DNA from: an uncultured Pseudoalteromonas sp.
GTDB taxonomy: Bacteria > Pseudomonadota > Gammaproteobacteria > Enterobacterales > Alteromonadaceae
Direction of reading: 5' to 3'
Assembly (NCBI GenBank): GCA_965198975.1
Contig: OZ240679.1
Coordinates: 1,052,713 to 1,116,712, forward strand
Length of the DNA: 64,000 nucleotides
Shown: positions 8,697 through 54,637 of the stretch, piece by piece
Numbering within the stretch: position 1 is the stretch's first letter
Layout of the letters: each line of letters starts with the position of its first letter
Program-made: the position numbers and the translations under genes
Notes under the pieces: model-generated
The model's database searches: none
What the model saw: only the letters and a program-made list of their open reading frames with translations
Told to the model about the DNA's origin: nothing

Positions 8697-8779
8697 TTTT
8701 TGGCTGGGAAAAATGAAGTAAGCTTACTAAGGGGTGTAACTTACTTCATAATTATTGTATAGAGATCTTAGAAATAGTT

Positions 8780-9724
8780 TTATTTAAATTTAAAATGTTG
8801 TATTAAGTTATCAACGTTTGTTTTGAATGTTTTCTTATCTTTTTTCTCTGATTGACTTTGTACCAACAAAAACTTTTCTTTTTGATAAGAAAGTATTTGA
8901 TAAATAAAAACAGGTTCTTCCTTTAATTGTGCGTAAGCAGTAGTTGCAAGTGCAGGAATATTATTAATTTTTATCATTTCATTTTTTAAAATTTCAACAT
9001 TTTTGTAATGCTTACTGTTTTTAATAAAATGATCGGATAAAGTTTTAATTTCCTCGATGGGCTCTTTAGTTTTTCCGTGGCTCACAACAACCGATTCAAC
9101 CTCACTTTTATTTTCTATGGGTAATAAAACTATCGAGTTGGCATATCTTTGTTTTAATTTGAAACTTGGCGTATCACTAAACTCAAATGGTAAACCTGTA
9201 TATACTCGTAAGTTATCTTGGGTAGCAACGGAAAGTGATAGCAAACTCTCTTTAATAGCAAGTTTATGTTGCTTACTAGCGCCTTCAGGATAGCTGGCTT
9301 CGAGCTGTATACTTGATAATTTATCACCCGCTATTAGCCATAGTTTTTCGAAATAAGTACCAGCAATATTTTGCCTTAACGTCATAAGCGTGCAAAGTGC
9401 ACCACCTACTTCAATTTGTTCTTTATTGATAAGCTTAAGTTTATTTTTTAACAAATTTTCTTTAGTTAAACTTGTTATATATCCGGTAAAGGGGGCTTCG
9501 ACTTCAGAAATACGGATTCGGGAAAAACTTTCAGGTTGTGAAAATCCATAATGTTCTTGCGTTATTCTAAACCCTGAAGGGGCAATTAAACCCACTTCGA
9601 TACCTTCGCTAATACGAAACAATTGCGGTGAATTATTTTCTTTTATCTCATCGGATGTGCTTGAACAGGCACATAAAAAGAGCATAGAACTGGCCAGAGC
9701 CAGCGAGTTTAGGCGTTTAATCAT
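8780..9724 (-). CDS. Hypothetical lipoprotein
   Basis: Start moved to the ATG at 9724 (MIKRLNSLALASSMLFLCACSS; lipobox LCAC). No recognisable family. Confidence 0.5.
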   Translation of the reverse strand: MIKRLNSLALASSMLFLCACSSTSDEIKENNSPQLFRISEGIEVGLIAPSGFRITQEHYGFSQPESFSRIRISEVEAPFTGYITSLTKENLLKNKLKLINKEQIEVGGALCTLMTLRQNIAGTYFEKLWLIAGDKLSSIQLEASYPEGASKQHKLAIKESLLSLSVATQDNLRVYTGLPFEFSDTPSFKLKQRYANSIVLLPIENKSEVESVVVSHGKTKEPIEEIKTLSDHFIKNSKHYKNVEILKNEMIKINNIPALATTAYAQLKEEPVFIYQILSYQKEKFLLVQSQSEKKDKKTFKTNVDNLIQHFKFK

Positions 9725-9866
9725 ATTACTCAGCAAACATTTTAATATTATTTCAAAGAGTAACAAATTTTTAAGCATGTTAATAGATTGTGTTTGTTGG
9801 CTGTGATGTACTAAAATGTACTTTGTGCGTCAATTCAGTAACTTTATGCCTAAAAATAACAAAGAG

Positions 9867-15800: not shown

Positions 15801-18800
15801 GGCGTTGATGGGGCGATAAATATTAGTTTGCCTGCGGGTGTTTCTTTTGACTATGCTGGGAATGGTAATGATGTTTCAAATACTTTTAGTATTGAATTTG
15901 ACGGAACGAAACCTACGGTTGTGGTTACTTCAGATATAAATGTAGCAGGTGCTAGCTTTGTTGCTTCAATAACTTTTGATGAAATAGTAACAGGGTTTTC
16001 TATTGAGGATATTGTTTCTAACAACGCTATGTTAAGTAATTTGACTGAAACTAGTTCATCGGTATTAAAATCTAAAGATATATTGGTTAATAATGCTGGT
16101 TCTTCCTATACAGTAGTTGTTACACCTATTACTGACGGTCTGGTCACTTTAGATATCGCGGCTGATGTAGCAGAGGATGCTGCAAGTAATGGTAATACGG
16201 CGGCATCACAATTTAGTGTTAATTATGATGCAACGAATCCGACCGTTAATATTACTGGTGCTTCAGGCGTGATAAGCACAGCCTTTACAGCAACGATTAC
16301 ATTTAGTGAAGATGTAACGGGATTTGTACAAGGTGATATTACAGTTAGTAATGCAACATTAAGTGGATTCTCAGCAACAAATGCACAGGTTTATACTGCT
16401 TTGGTTACGCCAAGTGATGATGGTCAAGTAACCTTGAATGTTGCTAGCAATGTTGCGGCAGATCCTGCGAATAATGGCAATATGCCAGCATCACAATTTA
16501 GTGTTAATTATGATGCAACAAACCCCACCGTAAATATCACAGGGGCAAGTGGCACAGTTAATGCTGCATTTACAGCAACGATTACATTTAGTGAAGATGT
16601 AACGGGATTTGTACAAGGTGATATTACAGTTAGTAATGCAACATTAAGTGGATTCTCAGCAACAAGTGCACAGGTTTATACTGCTTTGGTTACACCAAGT
16701 GGTGATGGACAAGTTACATTAGATGTCGCTAATAATGTTGCTGAAGACGCTGCGAACAACGGTAATATGGCAGCAGCACAATTTAGTGTGAATTTTGATG
16801 GTGTAAACCCGCTGGTTGTCATTTCAAGTACATCAGGTGCTGTTAATGCGGCCTTTACTGCAACAATTACTTTTACTGAAGATGTGACTGGCTTTGTAAT
16901 TACTGATGTTATTGCGGTAAACGCTAGTTTAAGTAATTTTAATACAATTGACGCTAAAACTTACACTGTATTAGTCACTCCTCAAGCACAAGGTAATGTC
17001 ACATTAGATGTTCCTGCAAGTGTTGCATTAGATAGCTCAAATAATGGTAATTTAGCGGCAGTACAACATACGGTTGTATTTGATAATACCAGCCCGCAAC
17101 TTATGATTTCAGGACCATCTGATCCTGTTAGTGCTGAGTTTACTGCAACTTTGACATTTAATGAGAATGTAACAGGTTTAACCTTGTCTGATATAACTGT
17201 AACTAATGGTGTCGTATCAAATCTAAATTCACAATCTGGCAATCTTTATACCGTAACAGTAACTCCAACAGCAAACGGTGCAGTTACTTTGTTTGTTGCA
17301 GCTAATTTAGTCGCAGATAGTGCGGGCAATGGTAATTCGGCTTCAAATACCTTGTCTGTGACGTTTGATAATTTAATTCTATCGTTAGTTTCATCAACAC
17401 CTGAAAATGGTGCTGATAATATTGCTACTTCTGTTATGGCTAGTTTTACTTTCAATAAATCTATTCAGGCAGTTGCGGGTAATAACAAATTAATTAGCTT
17501 ATTTAAACAAGGCGAAACGACGCCGGTGCAGTCTTTTGTTGCTTTAAGTAGTGATGTTCAAGTGATAGGTGCGACAGTGAGCTTATCATCAAGTTTATCT
17601 TTAGAAGCAGGTGCTACTTATACTTTAACTATTACATCAGGTTCGTTTATTGATAACTTAGCTAATGGAAATGATGAGATAAATATTACCTTTGAAGTTG
17701 GCAATACAGCACCGGTTGCAAATGATGATAGCGCAACTGTAAATGAAGGTGCTTCAATAGAAATAGATATCTTAGCAAACGACACTGATGCTGATAATGC
17801 GATAGATCCTGCCAGCGTAAATGTTGTAACCACGCCAGAAAATGGAACAGTCACAATAGATAATGTATCTGGAAAAGTTACTTACTCTCCAAATACTGAT
17901 TTTGCTGGCGCTGATTCATTTATGTATACGGTTCAAGATATTACTGGTGTTGTTTCAAATGCAGCACTTGTAACTATCACTGTAACTAATTTAAATGATG
18001 GCCCTGTCGCTGTGGATGATTTAGCTGAAACAGACGAAGATACTGCGGTTATTATTAATGTATTGGCAAATGATACAGATCCAGATGGTGCCAGTGATAT
18101 CGATGCGAGCTCAATTGTTATTACCACTAACGTGGTAAATGGCTCAACAGTTATTTCAAATGGTCAAGTGACTTACACACCAAATGAAAACTATTTCGGT
18201 AGTGACTCATTTAGTTATACTGTAAATGACATATCCGGATTAACCTCTAATGTTGCTAACGTGTCTATTAGTGTTATTAGTGTTAATGATGCTCCTGAAT
18301 TTACATCAACGGCTCTAATAACGGCTAATCCAGCTGAAGCTTACAGTTATCAATTTGTTGTTACTGATGTTGATGGTGATACAGTGAGTGTGAGTACGTC
18401 ACAGTTACCTACGTGGTTAACCTTCGATGGGGTTGATACTATTAGTGGCACACCTTTGGTTGATGATATTGGTAAAGTGTTTAACGTTATTTTAAATGCG
18501 ACCGATGAAATTATTACGCAACCTGTAATTCAAGAATTTGATATCACGATTAACGAACCAGGCGAAGCTTTATTGGAGTTATCTCAAGTATCAAGCGCTA
18601 ATCCGGTATTGGTTGGTTCAGATATTGAGGTTACCTATTCGATTAAAAATACAGGTCCTGAAGTTGCGTTATTGGATTCTTTGGTTATTGAACTTTCTGG
18701 TACGACAGGGTTAACTAATTTACCGCAAAATTGTGCAGTTGAAGTTATTAACAATCAAGATATCGTTACTTGTACTTTACCAAATGAATTAGGGCTTGAT

Positions 18801-22914: not shown

Positions 22915-24621
22915 CCGACATTCCGCAGCACTTTTAGGAATAAATTTTTTGATAGATGCTGTCCATGCAATCAATAATAGTATTGTTTCTCTCTTCCACA
23001 TTGAGGACTAATTGTTGTTCACTACTTATTGTTAACTCATGAATTCCCTGAAAACAAAAGAATACCCAGCGTGCGGTTGGTGGATTTTGGCATGGTTTGA
23101 ACTTCAAGTCGGGAAAATAGGCCGACTGCGCTTTTAATTCTCTTCTGATTTTATGCTCCAATGCGGCATAAACCATTAAACAACAGGTCATTACCATCAA
23201 GAGTGCTTTAATTCTCTCTGGTTTTTTCAAATAAAGTGATGAAGTTAAAAAGTCTGGGCTCTTTAGAAATCTAAACCCTTTTTCTACACTTTGTTGTGAT
23301 TTATAAAGGCTTAGCATTTTCTCCATGGTTAAACTCTCATCTAAATCATTGGTGGCTAAGACGAACATTTCTTTTTCCTGCAATCGTTGCGCGCGACTTT
23401 CTAGCGACGAATACAGTTGACCTGTTATTTGGTATTCATAGCTATCGGGTTGCTGATTGAGTTTAGGCCGACCACTTTGCTTAAATATGCCATGCTTAAC
23501 GATTTCCTGCTCACTGATAGCAAGTTCATTATGTGATTTTAACCAGACTTCTAATGCCTTATCTGCATCTAATTCACAAGAAAAACGTTGGCGACTCAGT
23601 TTTTTAAACGATTTTAGTGCTTCGTTTGATGCTTTTGCCATGCGCTTATTTAGTGTGTGCTGTTCCCGTTTTTTCGCTTGTTCACTTTCTATTAATAACC
23701 AACGCTGCTTTACGTTAGCATAGTCTGAGCTGAGCCAGGCACCGCGGTAGCCATTATCAAGTAACTCAAATTTTAACGTTTGTTGCGCTGCTATAGCCGC
23801 TTTTACTTGTTTTAATTTTTGTGGTGCACGCGAGATGAAAAGTTGTTTTTGTTCTTCAAGTGATTGCAGTGTTTCTGTGGTGTAAAGCGCTGCATCAGCA
23901 ATAAAGTACTGGCTATCTTGAGCCGCTTTCAAACTGCTAATGTGGTGTTTAATAATGTTTTTAAATCCTTCATTATCATTAATATTACCACTGGCTGCTT
24001 GCATGTATACAGGGATACCCGCCTTGTTTTCCGTGATCAAATTAAGCACTGCTTGATTCAATTCTGGCCGATGATCGAGGCTATATCCTCGTACTAACTT
24101 AATCGCTTGGCTATTTTCATCATGTTCATAATTACCATCAACATGAATACTGGTTGAATCTAAATTAATGTCTTCACATGGTAGTTCTAATTGCTCAACA
24201 ACACTTGCTGAAAGTGTTTGATAGATATCTGATACACCTTTTTCGTAAAGTTTATCCAGGCAACGACCTAAAGCATCGTCATTTATATATTCTGCCTTGA
24301 TCCCTTTGCCTAAAAGGCGCTCAACAGGACGTTCTTTAAAGTATTGTGGTGCGGCCAACAAAACCTAAGCCATTAAGGATCATAGCCTCAACGAGTTGAC
24401 CGTAAGAAATAAGCTTATCGTCAGCCTGCTCAGGAAATGCGTTATCAATGAGTTTGGCAATCCCAAGCTCTTTGTTCATGCCAGCAACTAAACCTAAATG
24501 ATCAATACTTTTTGTTGAATACGACGCCATTACTTTTCCATCACTTAAAGATAAGTAATAGATCAAATATGAAGATCTACGTCAAGTATTTTTTATTAAA
24601 ATTTTAGGTGCGGAAACACAG
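22915..24621 (-). mobile_element. IS1634-family (IS4 superfamily) insertion sequence, ~1.7 kb, with imperfect terminal inverted repeats
   Basis: Left end CCGACATTCCGCAGCAC..; right end ..GGTGCGGAAACACAG (shared TGCGGAA core in inverted orientation). It contains the transposase reading frames below. End positions are accurate to about +/-5 bp. Confidence 0.7.
22934..24566 (-). pseudogene. IS1634-family transposase split by a frameshift at ~24340..24361
   Basis: The N-terminal ORF (24336..24566) ends ...MILNGLGFVGRTTIL*. The second ORF continues in another frame with ..AAPQYFKERPVERLLGKGIKAEYINDDALGRCLDKLY. Together they form one colinear IS1634-type transposase. Confidence 0.75.
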
Positions 24622-25528: not shown

Positions 25529-26641
25529 TTAAGTATATTGAGCGCGATATTCTCTGGGTGTCATATTGACATATTTTTTGAATAATCGATTAAAAGTAGA
25601 CGAAGATTTTATTCCTGAATCGTAAGCTATGCCTTCAAGTTTTAGTGTTTTGTTATCGGGCTGGCGTAAGATATTTTTGATAGATTCGATACGGTGTCGA
25701 TTAACATACTCATAAAAAGAGTGTCCTGTTCCCGTATTGATTACGTGTGACAACAATTTGGCATTTAAATTGAGTTGTTCCGCTAATGTATTTAAGCTGA
25801 GTGTCGGATCAACATAGGGCTTATTGGTTTTCATATGCTCTTCTAAATTTCGACAGTGTGCAGATAGTTCAGTTTCTGGCATTATTTGCTTGATATCTTT
25901 ATCTTCGATAATAGAAAAAGTTAAAATTTCAGGGTGTAATAAGCTATAAACACCAATCCAATAGACTAAAATCGACATAGCTAACCAGAAAAATTCAAGT
26001 AATGTTTCTGATGGCTTGATACCTAAAATTTTTATGTCTGCGCCAAATATACTCGTCCAAATAATGAATAGTAAAAGCATACTTGTCAGTAAATATCCTA
26101 ACCAGTTTAATTTTAATGTATCGACTGTTGAGCATTGTCCCTGTATCCATTTATGATAGTGACCTATGGTTCGAATGGCAGCAATAATATAACTTATAAG
26201 CTGAATAGCGACCGCTAATTGGATAATGATCGCCACAATTAATAGCCATGGGTATTGTTTAATATCCCCATCTGATTTCACATCAAACATCAATGCAATA
26301 CTCAATATAACAAAGTACATCAAGGCTGGTAGGAAATGTAAATACAGAGACTGCAAAGTATAGGTTTTATTATGGCTCAAAGTTCTGGCATATAGAAAAA
26401 TTGCAGGTCCAAGCAGTGGAATGAGCGCATTAGATAACATACTTATAGCAGCTAGGTTTATTAACAAATCTTGTGCTTCAAGGATATTACGAATGATTAA
26501 TAATGAGTAACTTAAAAGAAATATACTTAAAAAATTATTAGCTAAATTATGATATCGGTCGGCGAAATATAAAATACTGGTGAGGCCAATACCGAGAATA
26601 CCAGCAAATAATATGAGTGCTTCTAATAAGTTTAAATGCAT
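25529..26641 (-). CDS. Membrane-anchored AraC-family transcriptional regulator (~7 TM helices + C-terminal HTH)
   Basis: Seven hydrophobic segments in the first ~240 aa. The C-terminal AraC HTH_18 region reads LNTLAEQLNLNAKLLSHVIN...YEYVNRHRIESIKNIL...IAYDSGIKSSSTFNRLFKKYVNMTPREYR. Confidence 0.75.
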   Translation of the reverse strand: MHLNLLEALILFAGILGIGLTSILYFADRYHNLANNFLSIFLLSYSLLIIRNILEAQDLLINLAAISMLSNALIPLLGPAIFLYARTLSHNKTYTLQSLYLHFLPALMYFVILSIALMFDVKSDGDIKQYPWLLIVAIIIQLAVAIQLISYIIAAIRTIGHYHKWIQGQCSTVDTLKLNWLGYLLTSMLLLFIIWTSIFGADIKILGIKPSETLLEFFWLAMSILVYWIGVYSLLHPEILTFSIIEDKDIKQIMPETELSAHCRNLEEHMKTNKPYVDPTLSLNTLAEQLNLNAKLLSHVINTGTGHSFYEYVNRHRIESIKNILRQPDNKTLKLEGIAYDSGIKSSSTFNRLFKKYVNMTPREYRAQYT

Positions 26642-26873: not shown

Positions 26874-28013
26874 ATGTATACATTACAAAACAATAACAAT
26901 TGTCAGTACATCAAAATTTTTTTATTTAGCATATTATTTTTACTATCAGCCTGTGGCAGCAATGATGAACCATATGATTGTCAGGCGGTAACTTGCACTG
27001 AAGTGAAGCCGACTTTAAAGCAAACAATTGATACTTATATTAATGCTAATCAATCAGAGTTTGATGCCGGGTTAGGGGTTTTGGTAAAGCATAATGGTTT
27101 TTCAGTATATAAATCGTCAAAGGGCATGGCTAATGCAATAACTAATACGAAACTTAATGATGACACAGGATATCGGCTGGCTTCAATTAGTAAAACTTTT
27201 ACTGCTTTAGCGATTATGCAACAAGTTGAATTAGGGACGATATCATTAAATGATTCCATCTTATTGTACATACCTGAGCTGCCAGGTTCCTGGCGTGATA
27301 TAAGTATTCATTTTTTATTAAGTCACCAATCGGGTATTCCTGATTTTCAAAATGATTGGTGGGATACCCAATGGCTTGAAGGATTAACCAATCAAGGCTT
27401 AATTGATTACTTTTCTGAGCATGCTGCATTGGAGTTTAATCCAGGTGATAGTACGCAATACAGTAATAGTGGTTTTACTATGCTAGCTGAAATTATTAGT
27501 CGGATAACAGGTATGAGTTTTTCAGCATACATGCAACTTAATATATTTTCCCCGACAGGCATGTTAGATAGTTATGTACTGAATGAACATAACGGCTTAA
27601 AAGATAAAGATGCTATTAACTTTGCGACCAAGGTAACGATTTACGGTTTGAATTTATATACTAATGGCTCTATGGGACAAGTAAGCTCTCTGAATGATTT
27701 TGAACGTTTTTTTACGGCATTAAAAGCGGGAGATATCGTTCAGCCAGAAACATTAAATTTAATGACTCAGACTCATGGGACAACATCAGGCGGACAGCAT
27801 TTTGGCTATGGAATTGATTTAGGTTACGATAATAATAATATATTTAGTGGCAATACATATGGCCATACAGGTAAATGGGATAGTTTTACGTCATTATTTG
27901 CTGTAGCACCTGACATTGATACACAATTAGTGATTTTAACCAACGGTGGTGATGTAACAAATACCCACAGAAACAATATAACAGAGCTAGTTAAAGCGTT
28001 TTACAAGCAGTAA
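26874..28013 (+). CDS. Serine hydrolase of the beta-lactamase/transpeptidase-like fold (class C-related), lipoprotein
   Basis: Lipobox LLSAC. S-x-x-K motif SISKTF and YSN motif (QYSNSGF). AAGGAAAAG RBS before the ATG. Confidence 0.75.
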   Translation: MYTLQNNNNCQYIKIFLFSILFLLSACGSNDEPYDCQAVTCTEVKPTLKQTIDTYINANQSEFDAGLGVLVKHNGFSVYKSSKGMANAITNTKLNDDTGYRLASISKTFTALAIMQQVELGTISLNDSILLYIPELPGSWRDISIHFLLSHQSGIPDFQNDWWDTQWLEGLTNQGLIDYFSEHAALEFNPGDSTQYSNSGFTMLAEIISRITGMSFSAYMQLNIFSPTGMLDSYVLNEHNGLKDKDAINFATKVTIYGLNLYTNGSMGQVSSLNDFERFFTALKAGDIVQPETLNLMTQTHGTTSGGQHFGYGIDLGYDNNNIFSGNTYGHTGKWDSFTSLFAVAPDIDTQLVILTNGGDVTNTHRNNITELVKAFYKQ

Positions 28014-30141: not shown

Positions 30142-32796
30142 TTAATAATAATCATAAGAAAATCTAAAGCCTATGGTACGGGGTCTGTTGGTAACAACTT
30201 TTGGCGTAAACTGCTGTGTATCTATGTATAGCGTTGCTCTTTCGTCAGTTAAGTTGTCAATAAATAGTTCTGCTTTCCATTCATCGTTTGTGATACCAAA
30301 ACTTAAATTTGCTAATACATAGCTATCTTGTACATAGCGGCCCCCGGCAAATGTTTCTCCATTACTATCCTGGTAATTGACTCCTGAATAAACATCCGCT
30401 TCTTTTTCAATACTTAAACCTGAACCTGTACCGTAAATTAGGTTAGTCGCATCTTCAAGCACATAGGCATCCATTGTCATACTGGCTAGTCTTTCACCTG
30501 TGTAACTGATGGAGCCGTTAATATAGCCAGTCATGTCTTTAGCGATGTGATAATAATACTCGGCTTGTAAATTTCCTGAAAACTCTGCTGAATAGGGGAG
30601 TTTACTGCCTACGGAAGGTGCAATACCTGCAAGTTCATCATTAATTGAGGTTAATTCGGTATCAATATAACTGAAAGCACCATTTATCACCAGATTATCA
30701 GTGGCGACCCAACTAAAATCTCCATCTATGCCTTTGATTTCAGCATCACCTACATTGTCGGTAAAAACTAAAAAACTGATGTTAGTTGGATCAAACCGTG
30801 ATGTTTGCAGGTCTGATATTTTTGAGTAATAAGCCGTTGCATTAAATCGTAACGTTTGATCAAATAAAGTCGATTTAAATCCAAGTTCAATATTATCTAA
30901 ACTATCAGTTGTGGAGTATACGGGGATTCGAAAGCCATCAAAGGCACCGTCTTGATTTTTCGCTAAACCACCACCAACCCGGTTTGTGACCGGAGGTCTG
31001 AATCCTTCCGAATAGGAAGTAAATATCATCAGATCTTTTGATACCTGCCAATCAAGTGATGTTTTTATAATAGTATCATCAACAGTAAGTGTACCATTAC
31101 TGTCTAGTAAGCTAGTATCTAACTGCCCACTGGCAATAGCAGCTTGAATGGCAGCAGCCTCTTCAGCACCAAAAAATTCAGTTAAGGCTTCATCACTACC
31201 ATCACCAAAGGCACGTAATCTGCCACTGACATCAACGGTTGTAGTCGCACCTTTAAAGGTATCATCAATTTGATACCAACGTGCGCCAAAACTCGCAGTA
31301 ACGGTCTCGGTTAGATCAAACTCCAGCTGACCAAAAACGGCTATTTGATCTATGGTATGAGTAATATCATTCACAAAACTTATTTCAGAAGAGAAAGGTC
31401 CGCCATGACTATTGATTCCTTCATTACCGGCAAGTGTTCTTTGTAGATCAGTAAAGTAAGGTAGATCAGTATTGCCTAACTGAAATTGACCAACGGTTGA
31501 TAACTCTTGCGAGTCGTAAAAAATACCACTTGTAATACGCCAGCGATTTTTAGCTGAAGTATTTACACGAAACTCATGGGTGATACGAGAAGTACTGGTT
31601 TGTTCTTTATAAAATTTAGTTGGATCAACACATTCTTGTGATTCAGGTGTACCTGCATAATTACAGGCGTAATAGGCCGCAAATGAACCTCCGTTAGTAT
31701 AACCTGTATAATCTATGGTTGAATTAATATCTCTGTCTAGGTATCCACCGGTGTAAACAACATCAAGATGTTCAAGTCGACCTTCAAGTGTCCAGGTGGT
31801 TAAACCAAAGTCGTCATTATTATCTTCAGGTACAAAGCGGTTCGTTGATGTTTCGCCCTCAAGATTTGGATCATAAGCAAATACACCTTCTGTATCGAGA
31901 GATTGTTGGGTATGTTGTACTAAAAGATCCCATTCATTATTGATCAAATAAGATACGCCAAAGCGGGCGCCAGCGTAATTTGCTGTATTGAAGTTATCTT
32001 CAACTAAGGCATCATTTTTTGGCGCGGTGACCGGCACATTGTCAGGGTTTGTTAATGCACCACCTGATACTCTGCTAATCACCACAGCGCTGCCGTTATA
32101 ACCCCCTTCACCGGGCACATTTAATATGTTATCTATCCAGCCACCCTGATGATCGTTGAAAGTGGCAACGCGCACAGCCAGTGAATCAGTTAAAGGCATA
32201 TTAAAATAGGCTTCCACTGAGTTACTCATATCACCACCTGATGTGGTGCTGGTACTGGTATCAAAGCCTGCAGAAAAACCATCATGATTAGGTTTATTTG
32301 TGATCAGTCGCACAGTACCTGATTGAGAGCTTGCGCCAAAAAGCGTGCCTTGTGGACCGGGTAATACTTCGATACGTTCAACATCTGTCGCGTAAATATC
32401 AAGATTGCGACCTTGCATTGATACGGGTTGTTCATCTAAGTAAAAAGCGACTGAGGGCTGTAACGCCTGAACAGATGATACCGCAATGCTAGTTTGTGTT
32501 GTAGCCGCACCTCGAATATATATTTCGTTTTGTCCGGGTCCTGTTCCCTGAAAAACAACATTTGGTAGAAACTCAACATATTGGTCAAAATTAGCAACTC
32601 CAAGTTTTTCTAAACTATCACCCGTTAGGGCATTGACCGTGATAGGAACCTCTTGAATAGACTCTGTTCGCTTTGTCGCAGTGACTTCAATGACTTCTAA
32701 TTTTGCTTTATCTTCCTTTGTTGCTTCCTCGGCGTAGAGAGAGCCCGATGCCGCGATGGCTGATAATACAGCACAATGCAGCTTAGTGAGTTTCAT
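30142..32796 (-). CDS. TonB-dependent outer-membrane receptor
   Basis: Signal peptide. Plug region LEVIEVTATKRTESIQEVPITV and EVLPGPQGTLFGASSQSGTVRLITNKP. Long beta-barrel ending ..IGFRFSYDYY. Confidence 0.9.
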   Translation of the reverse strand: MKLTKLHCAVLSAIAASGSLYAEEATKEDKAKLEVIEVTATKRTESIQEVPITVNALTGDSLEKLGVANFDQYVEFLPNVVFQGTGPGQNEIYIRGAATTQTSIAVSSVQALQPSVAFYLDEQPVSMQGRNLDIYATDVERIEVLPGPQGTLFGASSQSGTVRLITNKPNHDGFSAGFDTSTSTTSGGDMSNSVEAYFNMPLTDSLAVRVATFNDHQGGWIDNILNVPGEGGYNGSAVVISRVSGGALTNPDNVPVTAPKNDALVEDNFNTANYAGARFGVSYLINNEWDLLVQHTQQSLDTEGVFAYDPNLEGETSTNRFVPEDNNDDFGLTTWTLEGRLEHLDVVYTGGYLDRDINSTIDYTGYTNGGSFAAYYACNYAGTPESQECVDPTKFYKEQTSTSRITHEFRVNTSAKNRWRITSGIFYDSQELSTVGQFQLGNTDLPYFTDLQRTLAGNEGINSHGGPFSSEISFVNDITHTIDQIAVFGQLEFDLTETVTASFGARWYQIDDTFKGATTTVDVSGRLRAFGDGSDEALTEFFGAEEAAAIQAAIASGQLDTSLLDSNGTLTVDDTIIKTSLDWQVSKDLMIFTSYSEGFRPPVTNRVGGGLAKNQDGAFDGFRIPVYSTTDSLDNIELGFKSTLFDQTLRFNATAYYSKISDLQTSRFDPTNISFLVFTDNVGDAEIKGIDGDFSWVATDNLVINGAFSYIDTELTSINDELAGIAPSVGSKLPYSAEFSGNLQAEYYYHIAKDMTGYINGSISYTGERLASMTMDAYVLEDATNLIYGTGSGLSIEKEADVYSGVNYQDSNGETFAGGRYVQDSYVLANLSFGITNDEWKAELFIDNLTDERATLYIDTQQFTPKVVTNRPRTIGFRFSYDYY

Positions 32797-47923: not shown

Positions 47924-49399
47924 TTAAGGTTTATTTGCAGTGGTAGAATCTAAATTTAAACTGTGAGTTAAATTATTCAGCAGGCTGCGGCTTACCTTAT
48001 TTTCAGTTACTATTTTTGGCTTATCTATTTTGTCCAGCCAGATAGTGAGCAGTTTACCGGGTTTTAATACACTATTTATATTGAGTTTATTCCAGATAGC
48101 AATTTCCTTAAAAGGAACTTTATAATGCTGACTTATATCCCATAAAGTATCTCCTGGTTTAATCGTATATTTTTTACTGATTTTTTCTTTTTTTACCGCT
48201 TTTTCACGTTGTATATAAGGGCTAATAGGGTAGTCAATCGTTAGTTTAATGGGTTTATATCCAGGTAATTTAAGTACTTGTTTTATTTTTATCAGGCTTG
48301 ATTTCAACTTATTAAGTTGTTTTAATTTATCGATACTCGTATTAAATCTTTTCGATATTTTATATAGAGAATCACCTTTCACAACCTGATAATGTCCGTG
48401 GCTGATTACGCCATTAACGAGCTGATCATGGGCATCAAATAAATAAGCTTTTTCTATTGGCACTAACAATTTATGTGGCCCGTTTGACGAACTTGAGCTA
48501 CCTGAATATCCCGGGTTTAACATATACAAAGTTTTCATACTTGTTTGTGATATTTTTGCCGCCACTAACATATCAAATTGTCGTCCTAAATCAATTTGGA
48601 TAGTTGTAGCGCGATTTTCAAAATCAGGCCAATTGCCAAAATACTTTTTTAATTTAAGATGCGCAGATATGGCTAATAATCTCGGCACATAATCTTTAGT
48701 TTCTTTTGGTAAGGAGAGTGACCAAAAATCTGTTTTTTTGCCTAATTTTCTATTTGCTCTAATTGCATTGACAACTCGGCCTTCGCCACTGTTATATGCT
48801 GCGACAGCTAACAGCCAGTCTTTATTAAACTTTTTATGTAAAAAAGCAAGGTAATCTAATGCCGCAGAGGTTGCTGCGATGATATCATACCGACCATCAT
48901 ACCAAGTATCTCTTTGAATATTATAATGTCTTGCAATATCAGGCATTAATTGCCAAATGCCAGCCGCACCTTTCGACGAGTATGCCTTGGTATCAAAATC
49001 ACTCTCTATGATAGGGAGTAAGGCTAATTCTAGCGGCATATTTCTTTTTTCAATTTCTAAAATGATATGTTGCATAAAAGGTTTCGCACGTCGGGTAATT
49101 TTATACATGTAATCTGGGTGTGTTTTATACCAATTTAATCTTTGCTTTATTGTTTCCTGGTTTTTAGGGATTGGTAACTTAGTTTGCATATTGATACGAG
49201 ACCACATATTCAATACATTATTTCTGGTAATGACAGACTTGGTTTGTTGCGTTTTTCGCGGTGTTTTAGTTGGTTTTTTTGCGGTTTTAGTGTTTGCTTG
49301 ATTAACTTCAGGCACAGGGAGAGTCATTTTTTCAGGAGTAACATTAGTACTATTACAACCTGCTAAAACTATCACTATGAATATCCTGAAAATCCGCAT
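47924..49399 (-). CDS. mltD: Membrane-bound lytic murein transglycosylase D-like lipoprotein (SLT domain + 2 LysM)
   Basis: Lipobox VLAGC. SLT catalytic region LLPIIESDFDTKAYSSKGAAGIWQLMP and AAYNSGEGRV. Two LysM repeats (YQVVKGDSLYKISKRF.., YTIKPGDTLWDISQHY..). Confidence 0.8.
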   Translation of the reverse strand: MRIFRIFIVIVLAGCNSTNVTPEKMTLPVPEVNQANTKTAKKPTKTPRKTQQTKSVITRNNVLNMWSRINMQTKLPIPKNQETIKQRLNWYKTHPDYMYKITRRAKPFMQHIILEIEKRNMPLELALLPIIESDFDTKAYSSKGAAGIWQLMPDIARHYNIQRDTWYDGRYDIIAATSAALDYLAFLHKKFNKDWLLAVAAYNSGEGRVVNAIRANRKLGKKTDFWSLSLPKETKDYVPRLLAISAHLKLKKYFGNWPDFENRATTIQIDLGRQFDMLVAAKISQTSMKTLYMLNPGYSGSSSSSNGPHKLLVPIEKAYLFDAHDQLVNGVISHGHYQVVKGDSLYKISKRFNTSIDKLKQLNKLKSSLIKIKQVLKLPGYKPIKLTIDYPISPYIQREKAVKKEKISKKYTIKPGDTLWDISQHYKVPFKEIAIWNKLNINSVLKPGKLLTIWLDKIDKPKIVTENKVSRSLLNNLTHSLNLDSTTANKP

Positions 49400-49464
49400 T
49401 TGGCAGCACTATTTTGCTTTCATAATGATTTTAGTTTAGCTCATTTTGCCATTTATCGAGCTAT

Positions 49465-49776
49465 TTAATTGAGCAACTCTAAAATTACATATGGAGATTT
49501 TGCAATAATTAAGGGTAAGAAAATAAAAATTATAGCCATCAATAAATAAATTAATGAATGAATATAATGTATTTTTTTTAGCTGAATTAAAGATGTACCA
49601 GCCAGCAGGCCACCAAAAACAACACATACACCCCAAAGCTGTAAACTTAAAGTTTCTATTGAGTGATTAAGTTGGAGTAAACTTGCAAAAACTTTAGCGT
49701 CCGCAATAAGTACGGTGAGTAAAGTTAAACTGATAATTATTAATTTAATGCCAAGGATTCGACTTGTCGCGACCAT
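49465..49776 (-). CDS. Hypothetical small membrane protein (103 aa, ~3 TM)
   Basis: ORF with three hydrophobic helices. No family recognised. Confidence 0.4.
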   Translation of the reverse strand: MVATSRILGIKLIIISLTLLTVLIADAKVFASLLQLNHSIETLSLQLWGVCVVFGGLLAGTSLIQLKKIHYIHSLIYLLMAIIFIFLPLIIAKSPYVILELLN

Positions 49777-49873
49777 ACTCAGGCTCAGTTATTATTATTT
49801 GTTATATTAATAAGCGATTTAGGTAAATATTTCTAGTCTTTTGGGGTGAACGGTATGCATTTCAACTTAACAA

Positions 49874-50161
49874 TTAGGTGTTTATTGTCTCAGTTAACCT
49901 TGTGATCATGTTCAAAATACGTTGTTCATCCTGAGTTGATCCTTGTGTTAATTGCAATAATTCATGACTTAAATTTAATGCTGTCATTAATAAAACCCGT
50001 TCGTTATTACGAATACCACTTTGCTGTTTTACTTCAAGGAACTTTTTATCTAAATATGTGGCTGCAGATTGTAAAGCATCTTCCTGACCTTGGGGACAAG
50101 CAATTTGATGTTGCTGCCCCATTATATTTACCTTAATACCTTCAGGCTTATTTGGACTCAC
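49874..50161 (-). CDS. zapA: Cell division protein ZapA
   Basis: ..VNIMGQQHQIACPQGQEDALQSAATYLDKKF...NERVLLMTALNLSHELL is colinear with E. coli ZapA. GTG start. Confidence 0.8.
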   Translation of the reverse strand: MSPNKPEGIKVNIMGQQHQIACPQGQEDALQSAATYLDKKFLEVKQQSGIRNNERVLLMTALNLSHELLQLTQGSTQDEQRILNMITRLTETINT

Positions 50162-50164
50162 TTA

Positions 50165-50392
50165 TTAGGCCTGTTGAGTATTTTGAAGTTTAGTGAGTAG
50201 CTTTTCTAATGTGCTAGCCGCATTTTTTTGATTTTCTTCGTTATCTAACGCTTCAAGTTGTAACGTTTCATTTTCATCAAGTAATTTTTTACTTTCACTT
50301 TTTAAATCGTTAACTTCTTGTTTTAAGGTGTTATTTTGTTCAATTAATTGAGTTACCAGTTGTTCTAATTTAGGGAGAGTAGTTTCTAACAT
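50165..50392 (-). CDS. Small coiled-coil protein immediately upstream of zapA (TIGR02449-like)
   Basis: 75 aa, entirely heptad-like (LEQLVTQLIEQNNTLKQEVNDLKSE..). Its stop lies 3 nt before the zapA start. Confidence 0.55.
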   Translation of the reverse strand: MLETTLPKLEQLVTQLIEQNNTLKQEVNDLKSESKKLLDENETLQLEALDNEENQKNAASTLEKLLTKLQNTQQA

Positions 50393-50573
50393 AATGCGCT
50401 CTTAAATACAGGGAAAATTGAATCAGCAAATTTAATCTAATTATCGTGTTATTGCTACTTTTTGTTAATGATTTTAATTAATTTTTTTATAAATCAATTT
50501 TATTTTTAGGATTATTGCTATTGACTGGGGCATATGTTTCACTTCGGCTATTAAGACTCATCGAGACTATATA

Positions 50574-51410
50574 ATGCTAAGTTATCGCCATTCATTCCAT
50601 GCAGGAAATCCTGCGGATGTAATTAAACATTTGGTTTTATCAGAAGTGTTAGATTATCTAACGCAGAAAGACAAACCGCTAGAATACATAGATACTCATT
50701 CAGGGGCTGGTATGTATACTCTGGCGTCGAAAGAGTCACAAAAAACCCAAGAATATGAACAAGGTATTGCAAAGCTGTGGAATTACCAGGGGGATAATCA
50801 AATGATCCTGGATTATAAATTATTGATCCAGAGTTTTAACCAAGACAAGCTGGCGTTTTATCCAGGATCGCCTGAAGTGGCCAGAAAAAAACTAAGAGTG
50901 CAGGATAAGTCCTGGTTATTTGAACTTCACCCGCAAGATTGTAAATTATTAGAAAACAATTTTAAGCATTCAAAAAAAGCACAAGTACGATTCGAAGATG
51001 GCTTTAAAGGCTTAATAGGCTTGTTACCGCCCGTTTCAAGACGTGCCTGTATTTTAATTGATCCACCTTATGAAATAAAATCTGATTATGATTTGGTGAT
51101 CAAAACGCTGATAAAAGCTTATAAGCGTTTTTCTTCAGGGACATATATGATTTGGTATCCAGTGGTAGATCGAGATCGGATCAATAAAATGGAGCAAGAT
51201 CTGATCTCATCAGGTATAAAAAACATTTGTTTATTTGAATTAGCAACCTCAGCGGATACACCAGAACATGGTATGACGTCGTCTGGCATGATAGTGATAA
51301 ACCCACCCTGGAAATTAAAATCAGCCATGGAACAGGTTTTACCTGAATTAGTGAGTTTATTGGCGCCGGATAGTGGCTTTTTCAGAGTTGAAGAGCTTGT
51401 TGGTGAATAA
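50574..51410 (+). CDS. rlmJ: 23S rRNA (adenine2030-N6)-methyltransferase RlmJ
   Basis: MLSYRHSFHAGNPADVIKH... and the ILIDPPYE motif are colinear with E. coli RlmJ (YhiR). Confidence 0.85.
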   Translation: MLSYRHSFHAGNPADVIKHLVLSEVLDYLTQKDKPLEYIDTHSGAGMYTLASKESQKTQEYEQGIAKLWNYQGDNQMILDYKLLIQSFNQDKLAFYPGSPEVARKKLRVQDKSWLFELHPQDCKLLENNFKHSKKAQVRFEDGFKGLIGLLPPVSRRACILIDPPYEIKSDYDLVIKTLIKAYKRFSSGTYMIWYPVVDRDRINKMEQDLISSGIKNICLFELATSADTPEHGMTSSGMIVINPPWKLKSAMEQVLPELVSLLAPDSGFFRVEELVGE

Positions 51411-51450: not shown

Positions 51451-51500
51451 TTGACTATTACGAATAGTTTCGTATATTAACATACGAAACAGTTCGTAAT
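51451..51500 (+). promoter_or_regulatory. Near-consensus promoter overlapped by two copies of the palindrome TACGAA-N4-TTCGTA
   Basis: TTGACT (51451..51456), 16 nt, TATATT (51473..51478). Palindrome 1 is at 51459..51474 (TACGAAtagtTTCGTA) and palindrome 2 at 51483..51498 (TACGAAacagTTCGTA), with centres 24 bp apart. Confidence 0.55.
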
Positions 51501-51530: not shown

Positions 51531-52292
51531 ATGAAAAACTTTAGTGTCGTAATTGCCGAGAAAAGTAGTATTAGATGTAAAGCAATACAGCAATTACTTA
51601 AATTACAAAATGATTTTGATCCCATCGCTTTGACTTTTAATGCTGATGAAGTCATTGATATATGTAAAAAGGTGCAAGCTGATGTTTTGTTTATACATCA
51701 CGATCTTACCTTAGACGACGAAAGTAATAATATTCTTGAATTGCTACCAATACATACGCAAGTGATTTATATTGCAAATGATAATGTACAAGCGGCATAC
51801 GCTTTTGAATTGGATGTAATAGATTATTTAGTTGCTCCTATTTCCGCAACTCGGTTTCAAAAATGTATTAATAAGTTAGTCAGAACTTTATCCCAAGATC
51901 TTTCTCCTCCATTGATTCAAGTTCAGGCTATGTTACGCCAATTACAAATAACAAATGTACCAAATGAACCTCTTGTGGTGAAAGACTCAGGCCGTATCCG
52001 GGTGATCGATCCTGAAAATATATTATGGGTTGGAGGTGCTGGAAATTATGTGGAGTTACATTTAACCAATGAAGAAAGGCCTATTTTACATCGTGAAACT
52101 TTAAACGTAATGTTATCTAAATTGGCGAATTTGGGGTTTGTCAGGATCCACAGATCAGCTTTAGTTAAAAAACGCAGTATTACGGAGTTAAAACCTACAG
52201 ACAATGGTGACTATTTAGTTACTTTACAAAATGGTGACTTATTAAATTTATCTCGGCGCTATAAAGCGAGCATGGCAGGGATATTAAGTTGA
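51531..52292 (+). CDS. LytTR-family DNA-binding regulator with a degenerate (pseudo-)receiver domain
   Basis: ATG at 51531 with AAGGAG 6 nt upstream. The C-terminal LytTR domain reads RIRVIDPENILWVGGAGNYVELHL...FVRIHRSALVK. Degeneracy of the receiver region is detailed in the findings. Confidence 0.8.
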   Translation: MKNFSVVIAEKSSIRCKAIQQLLKLQNDFDPIALTFNADEVIDICKKVQADVLFIHHDLTLDDESNNILELLPIHTQVIYIANDNVQAAYAFELDVIDYLVAPISATRFQKCINKLVRTLSQDLSPPLIQVQAMLRQLQITNVPNEPLVVKDSGRIRVIDPENILWVGGAGNYVELHLTNEERPILHRETLNVMLSKLANLGFVRIHRSALVKKRSITELKPTDNGDYLVTLQNGDLLNLSRRYKASMAGILS

Positions 52293-52346: not shown

Positions 52347-52733
52347 ATGGGTAAGTCAAAGATAGTTCCAACAAGTACTGAATTAAATTTACTTAATATT
52401 CTTTGGCGTATTCAACCCGCTACGGTCAGGCAAGTGCATGAACATTTAAATGAAACGCAAAAATCAGGGTATACAACAATTTTAAAAATGCTACAAATTA
52501 TGCATGAGAAAGGCTTGGTTAAGCGTGATGAATCGAATCGTGCGCATGTGTACTGTACTTCGTATTCTGAAACTCAAACACAAAGTTCAATTGTTGCTGA
52601 TTTAGTATCAAAAGCTTTTGGCGGATCTAAATTTGATCTGGTTGTTCGTGCATTAGGTGAAACCACTAGCAATGACGAAATTAAAGATATTCGCAATTTA
52701 TTAAATTCGCTCGAACTAAATAATAAAAAATAA
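52347..52733 (+). CDS. BlaI/MecI/CopY-family winged-helix repressor
   Basis: ELNLLNILWRIQPATVRQVHEHLNE...GYTTILKMLQIMHEKGLVKRDESNRAHVY is typical of Penicillinase_R. Confidence 0.8.
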   Translation: MGKSKIVPTSTELNLLNILWRIQPATVRQVHEHLNETQKSGYTTILKMLQIMHEKGLVKRDESNRAHVYCTSYSETQTQSSIVADLVSKAFGGSKFDLVVRALGETTSNDEIKDIRNLLNSLELNNKK

Positions 52734-52747
52734 AAGGGTGAAATTAC

Positions 52748-54637
52748 ATGGAAATGTTTGATTTCGTTATTAATAATCCAGTATTGGATGCACTTTCAAT
52801 TACTTTGCTACATTTCTTATGGCAAGGTGCTGCTTTAGCATTTAGCTTGTTTATTATTTTAAAGCTGATCAGTAATAAACATTCAAATACTCGCTATTTG
52901 ATTTCTTTGTCTGCAATGGGATTGAATATTCTCATTCCTGTGATTACTTTTTTTATAATTTATCAGCCAGAACAAGTGAGCAGTGATTTACTCACAACTT
53001 TAGATTCAAAAATAAATTTTTTAGCTAACTCAGATTTAACGGGGAGTTCATTTAGCTTATTAGCCTATACCCCTTTATTATCGATTATCTGGATGATAGG
53101 CGTGGGATATTTAAGCATTCATTTAGTGTATGAAATGTTTAATGCCTATCAGTTACCCAGAAAAAATGTAGTGCAAGCTTCTGATGAACTACAAAATGTA
53201 TTTTATCGCTTATCTCAACAGCTCAAAGTGAATAAGTATACGCGATTATTAGTCTCTATGACGGTAGAAGTGCCTATGGTTATCGGTTGGTTACGACCTG
53301 CTGTGCTGTTACCCGCGTCAATGGCATCAGGGTTAACCGTCTCTCAACTAGAAATGTTACTGGCTCATGAGTTAGCACATGTTAAACGATTTGATTATTT
53401 GGTTAACTTACTGCAGACCTTAGTTGAGTTATTATTATTCTTCCACCCATGTGTTAAGTGGATTTCTAATCAAGTTAAAGCTGAGCGTGAATATTGTTGT
53501 GACGATATTGCGGTAAATTGCTGTGGTAATGCGGTGGCTTATGCAACAACATTGGCAGATGCCGAAATGTTAAGACCACACAATATACCTCAGTTAGCGA
53601 TGGCGGCCACAGGCGGAGATCTTAAAAAGCGTGTGTTTCGAATCGTGGGGCAGCATAGCTGTGCACCCAAATATGCGGGTCAGTGGCTTATTGGTTGTTT
53701 TAGTTTAGTTTTTGTTGGTAGCTTATTCATGACAAATGAAGTTATTGGCATGACGCAGTCTGTTGATTCAAAAAGCGATCCAAATCACTTAAATGATAAT
53801 TTAGTTGTGATGATAGAGCCTGAATCGACAGATAATAATGTGGTGGAAAAACCAGTTATAAATACTAAATCAACAGAAAAACCAAAGGTTAAGGTTACTG
53901 ATAAATTAGTAAAAACGACAGCTGATATAACAGAGAATAGCGCCAAACCAATATTAGTTACTCAGAAACAAATAGTGGAAAAGAAAGTTGAGAAACTCAT
54001 TGAAAAACCAAAGTTAGATACTGTTAAAGTAGCAACAAAAACGAGAAAAAAACCGGTAAAACCTGTCGATAGCAAACCGGTAACTCAAATTATTACTGCT
54101 AAATCAATCACTAAACCTATTGCCACAAAAACAGAATTACAACATAAGTCCCTTGTCGTAACAGGTGATATCAAAACTACAAAAGTAATTAAAACAATTG
54201 AAAGTAATAAAGCGAAAAAGCTTGAAATTAAAGCTGCTTCTTTGGCGTCTGCTGATATCAAGCGTGACTCACATATAGAAAATACAGTAATCAACTTAGA
54301 ACAGGTGATTGAAAAAAATATTAAAGTGTCACCTAAGTTAGTAAGAATAATTAAACCGGATTATCCTAAAATAGCCATGGATAATCAGGATGAGCAGGAT
54401 ATAAGAGTATCATTTGTAGTTAAAACAAATGGTTATGTTTCAAAAATAAAGTTTGAAGATGGTGTTAAGTCAAGCTTTAAAAGGTCTATCAAAAAAGCAC
54501 TAAAAAAATGGCGTTTTGAACCTGGTAAGCTAAATGGTAAAAAAACGGCAATGAAAGTAACAAAAATCTTTAACTTTTCAGAGCCTAAAGATGTCATTTA
54601 TGCGGTTACCGGCTCTAGATTGTCGAAATTAAAATAA
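52748..54637 (+). CDS. M56 (BlaR1-like) membrane metalloprotease fused to a Lys/Pro-rich linker and a TonB C-terminal domain
   Basis: LLHFLWQG N-terminus, 4 TM segments, and HELAHVKRFD (HExxH) in the loop before TM4. C-terminal PKLVRIIKPDYPKIAMDNQDEQDIRVSFVVKTNGYVSKIKFE...KKWRFEPGKLNGKK matches TonB_C. Confidence 0.8.
   Translation: MEMFDFVINNPVLDALSITLLHFLWQGAALAFSLFIILKLISNKHSNTRYLISLSAMGLNILIPVITFFIIYQPEQVSSDLLTTLDSKINFLANSDLTGSSFSLLAYTPLLSIIWMIGVGYLSIHLVYEMFNAYQLPRKNVVQASDELQNVFYRLSQQLKVNKYTRLLVSMTVEVPMVIGWLRPAVLLPASMASGLTVSQLEMLLAHELAHVKRFDYLVNLLQTLVELLLFFHPCVKWISNQVKAEREYCCDDIAVNCCGNAVAYATTLADAEMLRPHNIPQLAMAATGGDLKKRVFRIVGQHSCAPKYAGQWLIGCFSLVFVGSLFMTNEVIGMTQSVDSKSDPNHLNDNLVVMIEPESTDNNVVEKPVINTKSTEKPKVKVTDKLVKTTADITENSAKPILVTQKQIVEKKVEKLIEKPKLDTVKVATKTRKKPVKPVDSKPVTQIITAKSITKPIATKTELQHKSLVVTGDIKTTKVIKTIESNKAKKLEIKAASLASADIKRDSHIENTVINLEQVIEKNIKVSPKLVRIIKPDYPKIAMDNQDEQDIRVSFVVKTNGYVSKIKFEDGVKSSFKRSIKKALKKWRFEPGKLNGKKTAMKVTKIFNFSEPKDVIYAVTGSRLSKLK

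Follow-up and report, generated by a model that had tools for sequence, protein, structure and literature searches.

Metalloproteases of the M56 family that end in a TonB C-terminal (TonB_C) domain have been catalogued since 2007, when a survey, as cited in a later paper by Pollet et al., counted the combination in 9 of 263 TonB sequences (PMC10350073). The same fusion is found in TonB1 (BT0813) and TonB10 (BT3898) of B. thetaiotaomicron, and M56+TonB_C proteins are functionally uncharacterised according to Pollet et al. (PMC10350073). In a 2026 preprint on the CenIR system of C. difficile, in which approximately 15,000 M56 proteins were grouped, M56+TonB_C ranked second among M56 architectures (InterPro), ahead of true beta-lactam-sensing BlaR (~6%), and 96% of BlaR homologs were located no more than five genes from a BlaI-like gene (PMC13081940). 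We analysed such a protein together with its neighbouring BlaI-type repressor in a 64-kb stretch of DNA from an uncultured Pseudoalteromonas sp. (the whole stretch is referred to as the window, and its positions are used for numbering; related loci with which it was compared carry L numbers). A first-pass annotation of the window had stated that no experimental work on this architecture was known, and our literature searches, which found no experimental study of an M56+TonB_C fusion, agree with that statement; the novelty it implied for the architecture does not stand, given the catalogues cited above. The dual operator, the LytTR pseudo-receiver cargo and the TonB-box-like tail described below were not reported in the literature that we searched. 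A homolog search returned at least 3,700 proteins, and among the matches listed nearly all contain both Peptidase_M56 (PF05569) and TonB_C (PF03544); their database names are 'M56 family metallopeptidase' or 'TonB family protein'.

The gene pair is as first described: open reading frames (ORFs) at 52347-52733 (128 amino acids) and 52748-54637 (629 amino acids), separated by a 14-nt gap, were present exactly where the first-pass annotation had placed them, and all peptide strings quoted there were found. Its two-gene account was correct for the pair and overlooked a LytTR regulator gene located 54 nt upstream of the repressor gene, as well as the operator pair in front of that gene. On balance we consider it probable that the three genes form a self-repressed operon that acts as a regulated-proteolysis switch of the BlaI/BlaR1 kind. 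The features of the locus, in which no structured RNA was found, are as follows.

51451..51456 (+): predicted -35 hexamer TTGACT of the operon promoter; best promoter-like site of the region, 10/12 matches
51459..51474 (no strand): putative operator 1, TACGAATAGTTTCGTA, a perfect palindrome TACGAA-N4-TTCGTA that fills the -35/-10 spacer
51473..51478 (+): predicted -10 hexamer TATATT, which shares bases with operator 1 at the 3' end of the latter
51483..51498 (no strand): putative operator 2, TACGAAACAGTTCGTA, 24 bp from operator 1 and over the likely transcription start region
51531..52292 (+): LytTR regulator gene, first gene of the putative operon, 54 nt 5' of blaI
52347..52733 (+): BlaI/MecI-type winged-helix repressor, 128 amino acids, with a Penicillinase_R match
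52748..53752 (+): M56 module, residues 1-335, four transmembrane helices and a predicted cytoplasmic gluzincin protease (Pfam, AlphaFold2, Foldseek and BlaR1 alignment)
53366..53380 (+): HELAH zinc-binding/catalytic motif (H207, E208, H211), invariant in 87 homologs and aligned to BlaR1 H201/E202/H205
53489..53503 (+): EYCCD segment, residues 248-252, with the third zinc ligand E248 at one end and D252 at the other, aligned to BlaR1 E242 and D246; both invariant
53753..54334 (+): predicted periplasmic disordered linker, residues 336-529, with a predicted local distance difference test score (pLDDT) below 50
54335..54580 (+): TonB C-terminal domain, residues 530-611, above Pfam and TIGRFAM cut-offs
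54605..54622 (+): tail motif VTGSRL, residues 620-625, a TonB-box look-alike behind a flexible spacer, conserved in homologs and similar to receptor TonB boxes

The 128-amino acid protein matched Penicillinase_R (PF03965) with an E value of 4e-24 over residues 9-120, which upholds its assignment as a BlaI/MecI-type repressor, a winged-helix protein with a dimerisation helix at the C-terminus, and the closest solved structures were M. tuberculosis BlaI (2G9W) together with MecI and BlaI (1SD6, 1SD4). Repressors of the CopY type possess a Cys-rich metal site at the C-terminus. Such a site is missing from the window protein, the sole Cys of which is at position 70, and its score against TIGR02698 CopY_TcrY was 40 bits for a cut-off of 122. 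A homolog of the repressor is encoded directly 5' of the M56 gene in 77 of the 79 loci scanned, which belong to several phyla.

The 629-amino acid protein matched Peptidase_M56 (PF05569) at residues 94-297 with an E value of 1e-28, better than the Pfam cut-off. A structure model obtained with AlphaFold2 from 87 homologs contained three N-terminal transmembrane (TM) helices at residues 11-40, 46-71 and 104-134, a fourth (TM4) at 312-332 and, modelled with confidence, the protease domain at 141-301. The protease is therefore positioned between TM3 and TM4 in the model, and by analogy with BlaR1 it would face the cytoplasm. In Foldseek searches the best matches of the N-terminal part were the cryo-electron microscopy structures of S. 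aureus BlaR1 (8EXT, 8EXS and 8EXP). R295 aligned with Arg294 of BlaR1, the domain-swap residue, and, like H207, E208, H211, E248 and D252, was invariant across the 87 homologs, the alignment of which also served for the tail and TM4 His counts given below. The zinc site and the four TM helices of the BlaR1 transducer core, as claimed in the first-pass annotation, were thus recovered by profile, model and alignment. Neither domain searches nor Foldseek detected a penicillin-binding, transpeptidase or beta-lactamase domain in the protein, whose score for NCBIfam blaR1_generic was 81.8 bits with a cut-off of 400; a TonB_C domain stands in the place of the penicillin-binding sensor, again as had been described. 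Judged by these residues, the protease looks active and BlaR1-like in detail.

The position of the repressor that aligns with the BlaI cleavage site LVLN|F is conserved as LV(V/M)(R/Q/H)|AL and reads LVVR|A in the window, and LAMA|A in the M56 protein is aligned with LSHS|F, the site at which BlaR1 cleaves itself. The P1' residue is thus Ala at both aligned sites (LAMA|A for autocleavage and LVVR|A for the repressor), where S. aureus has Phe at both (PMC9834060), a pattern consistent with a shared but shifted protease specificity. By analogy with these systems, proteolysis of the repressor by the M56 protein is likely. In more distant relatives the M56 core is joined to different outer modules, namely HEAT repeats, CarboxypepD_reg or none that is recognisable, and a BlaI gene is always present; the core thus acts as a chassis on which sensors are exchanged.

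The sequence TACGAA-N4-TTCGTA is present in only two copies in the window with one mismatch allowed (0.11 expected). We counted its core, TACGA-N6-TCGTA, in 30 Alteromonadales loci with a homologous gene pair (405,822 bp) and obtained 29 matches versus a shuffle mean of 0.56; all 29 were located upstream of the blaI operon. A single site lies 29-169 nt before blaI in the Colwellia and Thalassotalea loci and in the Pseudoalteromonas NBT06-2 locus L003, and pairs of sites with a spacing of 22-24 bp are present in L002, L088, L085, L089, L001 and L093, with L091 having an imperfect second site. Six of the seven dual-operator loci share one layout, in which TTGAC(T/A) is followed by 2 nt, by operator 1 as the promoter spacer, by a -10 hexamer that begins in the last two bases of the operator, and by operator 2; the exception is L088, with TTGCAA at the -35 position. 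This layout is that expected for a repressor which blocks RNA polymerase, with the repressor presumably binding to both sites, and other repressors of the BlaI family have been described as needing two dyads (PMC8457756). Autoregulation through the predicted operator is very likely, and the conserved putative operator over the promoter strengthens the earlier expectation of an autoregulated repressor. As to further operator sites in the window, the sole one-mismatch match, at 36260, was at chance level and was discarded. Among the closest relatives of the protease, L091 (1920-2272) and L092 (1000-1459) contain a leader of 350-460 nt without a convincing ORF that extends from the operator or the upstream gene to blaI; the two leaders have a short block GAGGCTCC in common, and immediately 5' of blaI they have a degenerate site that resembles the operator, TACAACTTGTTTCGTA and TACACATAGTTTCGTA.

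The protein encoded at 51531-52292 matched LytTR (PF04397) with an E value of 1e-19, and its start codon, ATG at 51531, is preceded by a ribosome-binding site AAGGAG and fits the N-terminus of the family. No Response_reg (PF00072) match was obtained even at E = 10, and a receiver fold was recognised by alignment to solved receivers and canonical LytTR response regulators. In this pseudo-receiver EK stands in the place of the acidic pair DD, His in that of the phospho-acceptor Asp and Ala in that of the conserved Lys, and the Lys is lost throughout this small family of LytTR proteins (76 proteins, nearly all Pseudoalteromonas-like). No histidine kinase gene adjoins the LytTR gene. Given the lack of a usable receiver, the activity of the LytTR protein is probably controlled by its abundance. 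Because neither an operator nor a terminator-like site was found between the LytTR gene and blaI in the window, the LytTR, blaI and M56/TonB_C genes probably form one transcript.

The same string of three genes is present in Pseudoalteromonas sp. T1lg24 (L002) and P. tunicata (L088), where the flanks are unrelated, and the operator pair precedes LytTR in all three linked loci. In Pseudoalteromonas sp. NBT06-2 and P. denitrificans, LytTR follows rlmJ as in the window and the blaI-M56 pair is located elsewhere in the genome; these unlinked LytTR orthologs (L085 and L089) keep the operator pair behind a TTGACT -35 hexamer. The retention of the operator pair by LytTR, whether linked or unlinked, indicates that LytTR belongs to the regulon of the repressor, and the LytTR gene is the likely output of the switch. 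The block comprising an SLT/LysM transglycosylase gene, a 103-amino acid ORF (missing from the L085 gene calls), zapA, zapB, rlmJ and LytTR (window 47924-51410 for the part upstream of LytTR) is syntenic with L085 and L089, where DUF3016 follows LytTR in place of blaI-M56. The blaI-M56 pair therefore appears to have moved relative to LytTR during evolution. Synteny and best hits place the source organism in the Alteromonadales, near Pseudoalteromonas.

Between the protease and the TonB_C domain lies a linker of approximately 195 amino acids (residues 336-529) that is rich in Lys, Val, Thr and Ile. A low-complexity Lys/Val-rich stretch had been described at this place and is present; the length of approximately 230 amino acids and the richness in Pro attributed to it were not confirmed, Pro accounting for only 5.7% of residues. 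The linker was disordered in the AlphaFold2 model (333-520), and its sequence and length vary among homologs. The TonB_C match (PF03544) at residues 536-610 had an E value of 1.3e-10 and a score of 42 bits (cut-off, 24.6), the protein scored 30.1 bits against TIGR01352 tonB_Cterm (cut-off, 27.1), and residues 530-610 were modelled with confidence as a TonB_C fold. By Foldseek this domain matched the C-terminal domain of P. aeruginosa TonB bound to FoxA (6I97_D), with a target-normalised TM-score of 0.86, a root-mean-square deviation of 1.9 Å and 34% identity. The identification of a TonB_C-type domain in the first-pass annotation is thereby borne out by hidden Markov model searches above both cut-offs and by structure. 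Conserved in the TonB_C domain of homologs are the YP motif (Y539/P540), F556, G562 and W588, and the edge strand VTKIFNF resembles the receptor-pairing strand ATKMFFF of P. aeruginosa TonB. The domain is presumably periplasmic and would act as the sensor.

Behind the last strand of the TonB_C domain the window protein ends in a tail that reads YAVTGSRLSKLK (tail peptide, DVIYAVTGSRLSKLK). The motif TG[ST][RK][ILV] is present at this place in 50 of 87 homologs, with near-variants in 4 more; the spacer before it varies in length and sequence, and proteins of the Colwellia/Thalassotalea clade end without it. N-termini of Pseudoalteromonas receptors, found by tblastn against annotated plasmids, contain directly after the signal peptide the sequences VEKIEVTGSRIKRTD, IDRIEVTGSRILREG and VERIQVTGSKIKRIG (IEVTGSRIKR, IEVTGSRILR and IQVTGSKIKR). 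Compared with DTLVVTA of BtuB, the VTGSR stretch of these receptors is taken to be at the TonB-box position. No match to the motif in solved structures was obtained with phmmer and a short peptide, and a text search of the literature for VTGSR together with the TonB box found nothing. The tail looks like a free short motif in the models. Docking of the tail in cis on its own TonB_C domain was also considered; given that the tail was unstructured in both AlphaFold2 runs, neither of which docked it, an intramolecular docked state is unsupported.

The same motif recurs in a sister lineage (L001, L093 and L094), in which a mini-lipoprotein gene is the first gene behind the operator pair and the gene order is mini-lipoprotein, 516-amino acid lipoprotein, blaI, M56/TonB_C. 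The mini-lipoprotein genes are the following.

L001:5165-5350 (+): mini-lipoprotein gene, missed by the L001 gene caller
L093:6001-6237: mini-lipoprotein gene
L094:3105-3341: mini-lipoprotein gene

These mini-lipoproteins have a lipobox LSGC and a mature part of approximately 40 amino acids with the end C-(P/Q)-K-VTGSR-MG-x-x-C; this C-terminal end is conserved and the middle is divergent. The family is very narrow: among 5.8 billion proteins there were just two further clusters. The 516-amino acid lipoprotein cargo of L001 gave no Pfam match. In addition, paralogs of the LytTR protein with 60-65% identity to the window protein are encoded divergently to receptor genes with TonB boxes VERIEVTGSR(I/L)KRTD, as listed here.

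L086:1954-4686 (-): receptor gene divergent to a LytTR paralog, TonB box of the VTGSR class
L090:2986-5655 (-): receptor gene divergent to a LytTR paralog, TonB box of the VTGSR class

The genome of the window itself contains a LytTR paralog with 64% identity (P0124). Control of the receptor-adjacent paralogs by the operator was considered and ruled out, no operator being present in front of them. The links of the tail, the lipoprotein and the LytTR paralogs to receptors are circumstantial.

With regard to receptor genes near the pair, the earlier remark that no receptor gene is adjacent is true for the flanking genes; the only TonB-dependent receptor of the window is encoded approximately 20 kb from the locus (30142-32796, minus strand; 884 amino acids, Plug and barrel) and has no operator. 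The survey of gene neighbourhoods that the annotation had proposed yielded a single case: in L004 a receptor gene (8347-11331, plus strand) directly 3' of M56/TonB_C encodes 994 amino acids, with approximately 115 amino acids ahead of the TonB box. The closely related L005 lacks the receptor gene found at L004. A co-conserved receptor as a general feature of the pair was rejected, L004 being alone.

On the basis of these results we propose the following scheme. At rest, repressor dimers would occupy the two palindromic operators, in the promoter spacer and at the start site, and keep the operon nearly off. Homology and modelling suggest that the zinc site of the protease is cytoplasmic and that the disordered tether of approximately 195 amino acids carries the TonB_C domain across the periplasm. 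A periplasmic or outer-membrane event would then engage this domain; of such events the most likely is that a TonB-box-type beta-strand is captured, with the VTGSRL tail of the protein itself as competitor, a plausible proposal for the signal that we nevertheless regard as doubtful. By analogy with BlaR1 the event would be relayed via TM4 to the protease, with consequent cleavage of the repressor. Derepression would increase the amount of LytTR protein, which may act on unlinked targets, possibly including TonB-dependent receptor genes, and the same transcript would yield repressor and protease and so reset the switch. The idea of a competitive decoy has a precedent in BlaR1, an internal loop of which occupies the ligand groove of the sensor until displaced by beta-lactam (PMC9834060).

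A more specific version is that the TonB_C arm senses receptor occupancy by TonB-box mimicry. The exposed VTGSR-class boxes of substrate-loaded receptors would compete with the built-in VTGSRL decoy, probably between the protomers of a dimer, and the induced lipoprotein of the sister lineage would serve as a decoy as well. Once the decoy is displaced, the cytoplasmic protease would become active, the repressor would be destroyed and a phosphorylation-independent LytTR protein would be switched on to tune receptor genes. This version is rather unlikely. The earlier suggestion of a TonB-box contact as input has nevertheless gained indirectly from the tail, the co-regulated lipoprotein and the LytTR paralogs, with no co-conserved receptor to set beside them, and it is still an inference.

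Several observations weigh against these proposals at one level or another. For this subfamily proteolysis and DNA binding, like the signal, are inferred, the canonical scissile residues N|F of BlaI are not kept in the repressor, and the exact operator is missing from 3 of the 30 related loci. The LytTR cargo and the tail are confined to one clade and are not general in M56/TonB_C systems. The tail was a low-confidence coil in both AlphaFold2 models (full length with 87 sequences, and domain only with 42 tail-bearing sequences). At the position equivalent to G174 of E. coli TonB (G275 in P. aeruginosa) the window protein has Q550, and homologs have Q, G, E, A, V, S or I. As for receptors, a receptor gene adjoins the pair in only one (L004) of approximately 30 Alteromonadales loci, its TonB box DTEVIQVVGSS is of a different type, and the TonB-box region of the window receptor, LEVIEVTATKRTES, reads VTATKR and likewise belongs to a class other than VTGSR. 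The BlaI-type operator was also looked for before the receptor-adjacent LytTR paralogs and none was found, so that the link to receptors is indirect.

Other explanations of the TonB_C arm were weighed against strand capture. Instead of reading specific receptors, the domain may be anchored to peptidoglycan or generally to the outer membrane, with the switch acting as an envelope tether or ruler that reports the width of the periplasm, detachment of the outer membrane or damage. The C-terminal domain of TonB binds peptidoglycan. A tether would also accord with the lack of a co-conserved receptor gene, with a linker that is long, disordered and variable in length, with the acceptance of unrelated outer modules (HEAT repeats and CarboxypepD_reg) by the M56 chassis, and with the finding that CenIR, a non-canonical BlaIR system, controls cell-envelope genes (PMC13081940). 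It leaves unexplained, however, the conserved TonB-box-like C-terminal motif and its recurrence in a co-regulated lipoprotein, and conservation is good both in the edge strand that pairs with receptors and in the YP motif; we consider it unlikely. Alternatively, the tail may be a handle for the genuine TonB-ExbB-ExbD machinery, which would bind and pull VTGSRL so that the switch would respond to TonB activity or proton-motive force, or would compete for TonB with receptors. The flexible and exposed tail matches receptor TonB boxes, was not docked on its own domain in the models, and has its motif repeated in the sister-lineage lipoprotein, all of which would suit a handle. Such a role would leave the protein's own well-conserved TonB_C domain without a function, and the Colwellia/Thalassotalea clade lacks the tail yet keeps both TonB_C and the operator, which makes this explanation distinctly improbable.

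The remaining alternatives concern the protein as a whole. It might be an alternative TonB that energises outer-membrane transport, with the M56 portion a mere unusual anchor and the repressor unaffected, as the frequent database name 'TonB family protein' and the good structural match of its C-terminal domain to receptor-bound TonB would suggest. In TonB a single N-terminal TM helix couples to ExbB/ExbD through a Ser-x3-His motif. The window protein is instead anchored by an M56 protease of four helices, the catalytic site of which is invariant; TM4 (WLIGCFSLVFVGSLFM) contains no His, and only 32 of 87 homologs have one in this helix. The position of G174, reported as functionally essential in TonB (PMC10350073), is variable. 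The absence of a Pro-rich region is shared with many non-enterobacterial TonBs (PMC10350073). No exbB or exbD was found among the genes flanking the pair. Because of the four-helix anchor, the lack of a conserved His in TM4, the variable G174 position and the lack of flanking exbB/exbD, the protein is not a usual energy transducer, and with a repressor gene almost always attached, an alternative TonB is extremely improbable. Control without proteolysis, in which the membrane protein would sequester or release the repressor or would itself be the regulated target, would accommodate the missing N|F scissile pair. We judge it very improbable, given that the strict conservation of catalytic residues in 87 homologs argues for enzymatic activity and that characterised relatives cleave (BlaR1, PMC9834060; PetP/PetR, PMC7896320).

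M56 proteases with a TonB_C end outnumber the true beta-lactam-sensing BlaR proteins in the 2026 survey (PMC13081940). The locus and its relatives provide handles on this group in the form of an operator, an output gene and a candidate class of ligand (TonB-box-like strands, one of them built in), and the question is thereby made testable. If the TonB_C arm reads receptor TonB boxes, the system would be a protease-based report to the cytoplasm that an outer-membrane transporter is loaded, and TonB-box mimicry, if true, would constitute a third kind of cell-surface signalling, based on a protease and without relation to the sigma/anti-sigma type. If the arm does not read TonB boxes, a large orphan family would nonetheless have gained a well-delimited regulon.

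Elsewhere in the window, a serine hydrolase of the PF00144 'Beta-lactamase' family is encoded at 26874-28013 (+), with a divergent AraC-type regulator at 25529-26641 (-). A link of the hydrolase gene to the repressor was ruled out, since no BlaI-type operator is nearby and the gene has its own AraC-type neighbour. An insertion sequence at 22934-24361 (-), whose DDE_Tnp_1 transposase has a DUF4277 N-terminus, lies between glycosyltransferase genes and the AraC/hydrolase pair. A giant ORF of 3,538 amino acids (9816-20432, plus strand) contains ten DUF7933 repeats, Big_12, Big_9 and cadherin-like domains and FG-GAP repeats, and its product is presumably a surface adhesin; a second FG-GAP/ASPIC-UnbV protein is encoded at 3289-6411. 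Near the start of the window (1358-2542, minus strand) a phage-tail-fibre-like protein of 394 amino acids contains Peptidase_S74, the intramolecular chaperone of endosialidase and tail-fibre proteins.

In comparison with known systems, the 629-amino acid protein resembles TonB in the fold of its C-terminal domain, and it keeps the YP motif, the Gly and Trp that are conserved in TonB, and the edge strand for pairing with receptors. Unlike TonB, it lacks a single N-terminal TM helix with the Ser/His motif, a Pro-rich rigid spacer, a conserved G174 equivalent and nearby exbBD, and it has a TonB-box-like tail of its own. A resemblance to FecA/FecR/FecI is possible in that an outer-membrane receptor event would pass via the periplasm and a membrane protein to the proteolytic release of transcription. 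The parts are unrelated, however: no extracytoplasmic function (ECF) sigma factor, anti-sigma factor or receptor with an N-terminal signalling domain is encoded among the flanking genes in the window or related loci, and the receptors examined here start with the TonB box right after the signal peptide. PetP/PetR of Synechocystis, CenR/CenI of C. difficile and mycobacterial BlaR/BlaI without a sensor are similar in their non-beta-lactam responses and small regulons (PMC7896320, PMC13081940), whereas they have no TonB_C module and have other outputs, the signal for PetP being copper.

The M56+TonB_C proteins already catalogued have the same domain architecture and usually a BlaI-like gene nearby (PMC10350073, PMC13081940). 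The accounts given of them are descriptive, and no operator, output or signal is defined there; the clade of the window adds the LytTR cargo, the dual operator and the tail. The closest characterised parallels are BlaR1/BlaI and MecR1/MecI of S. aureus, with which the locus shares the order repressor then protease, a four-TM gluzincin of the M56 family in which the zinc ligands and the domain-swap Arg are identical, and a winged-helix repressor with palindromic operators over its own promoter in a two-dyad arrangement. It differs from them in having a tether and TonB_C domain instead of a penicillin-binding sensor, a half-site TACGA rather than TACA, P1' Ala rather than Phe, and as its cargo a transcription factor where the S. 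aureus systems encode a resistance enzyme.

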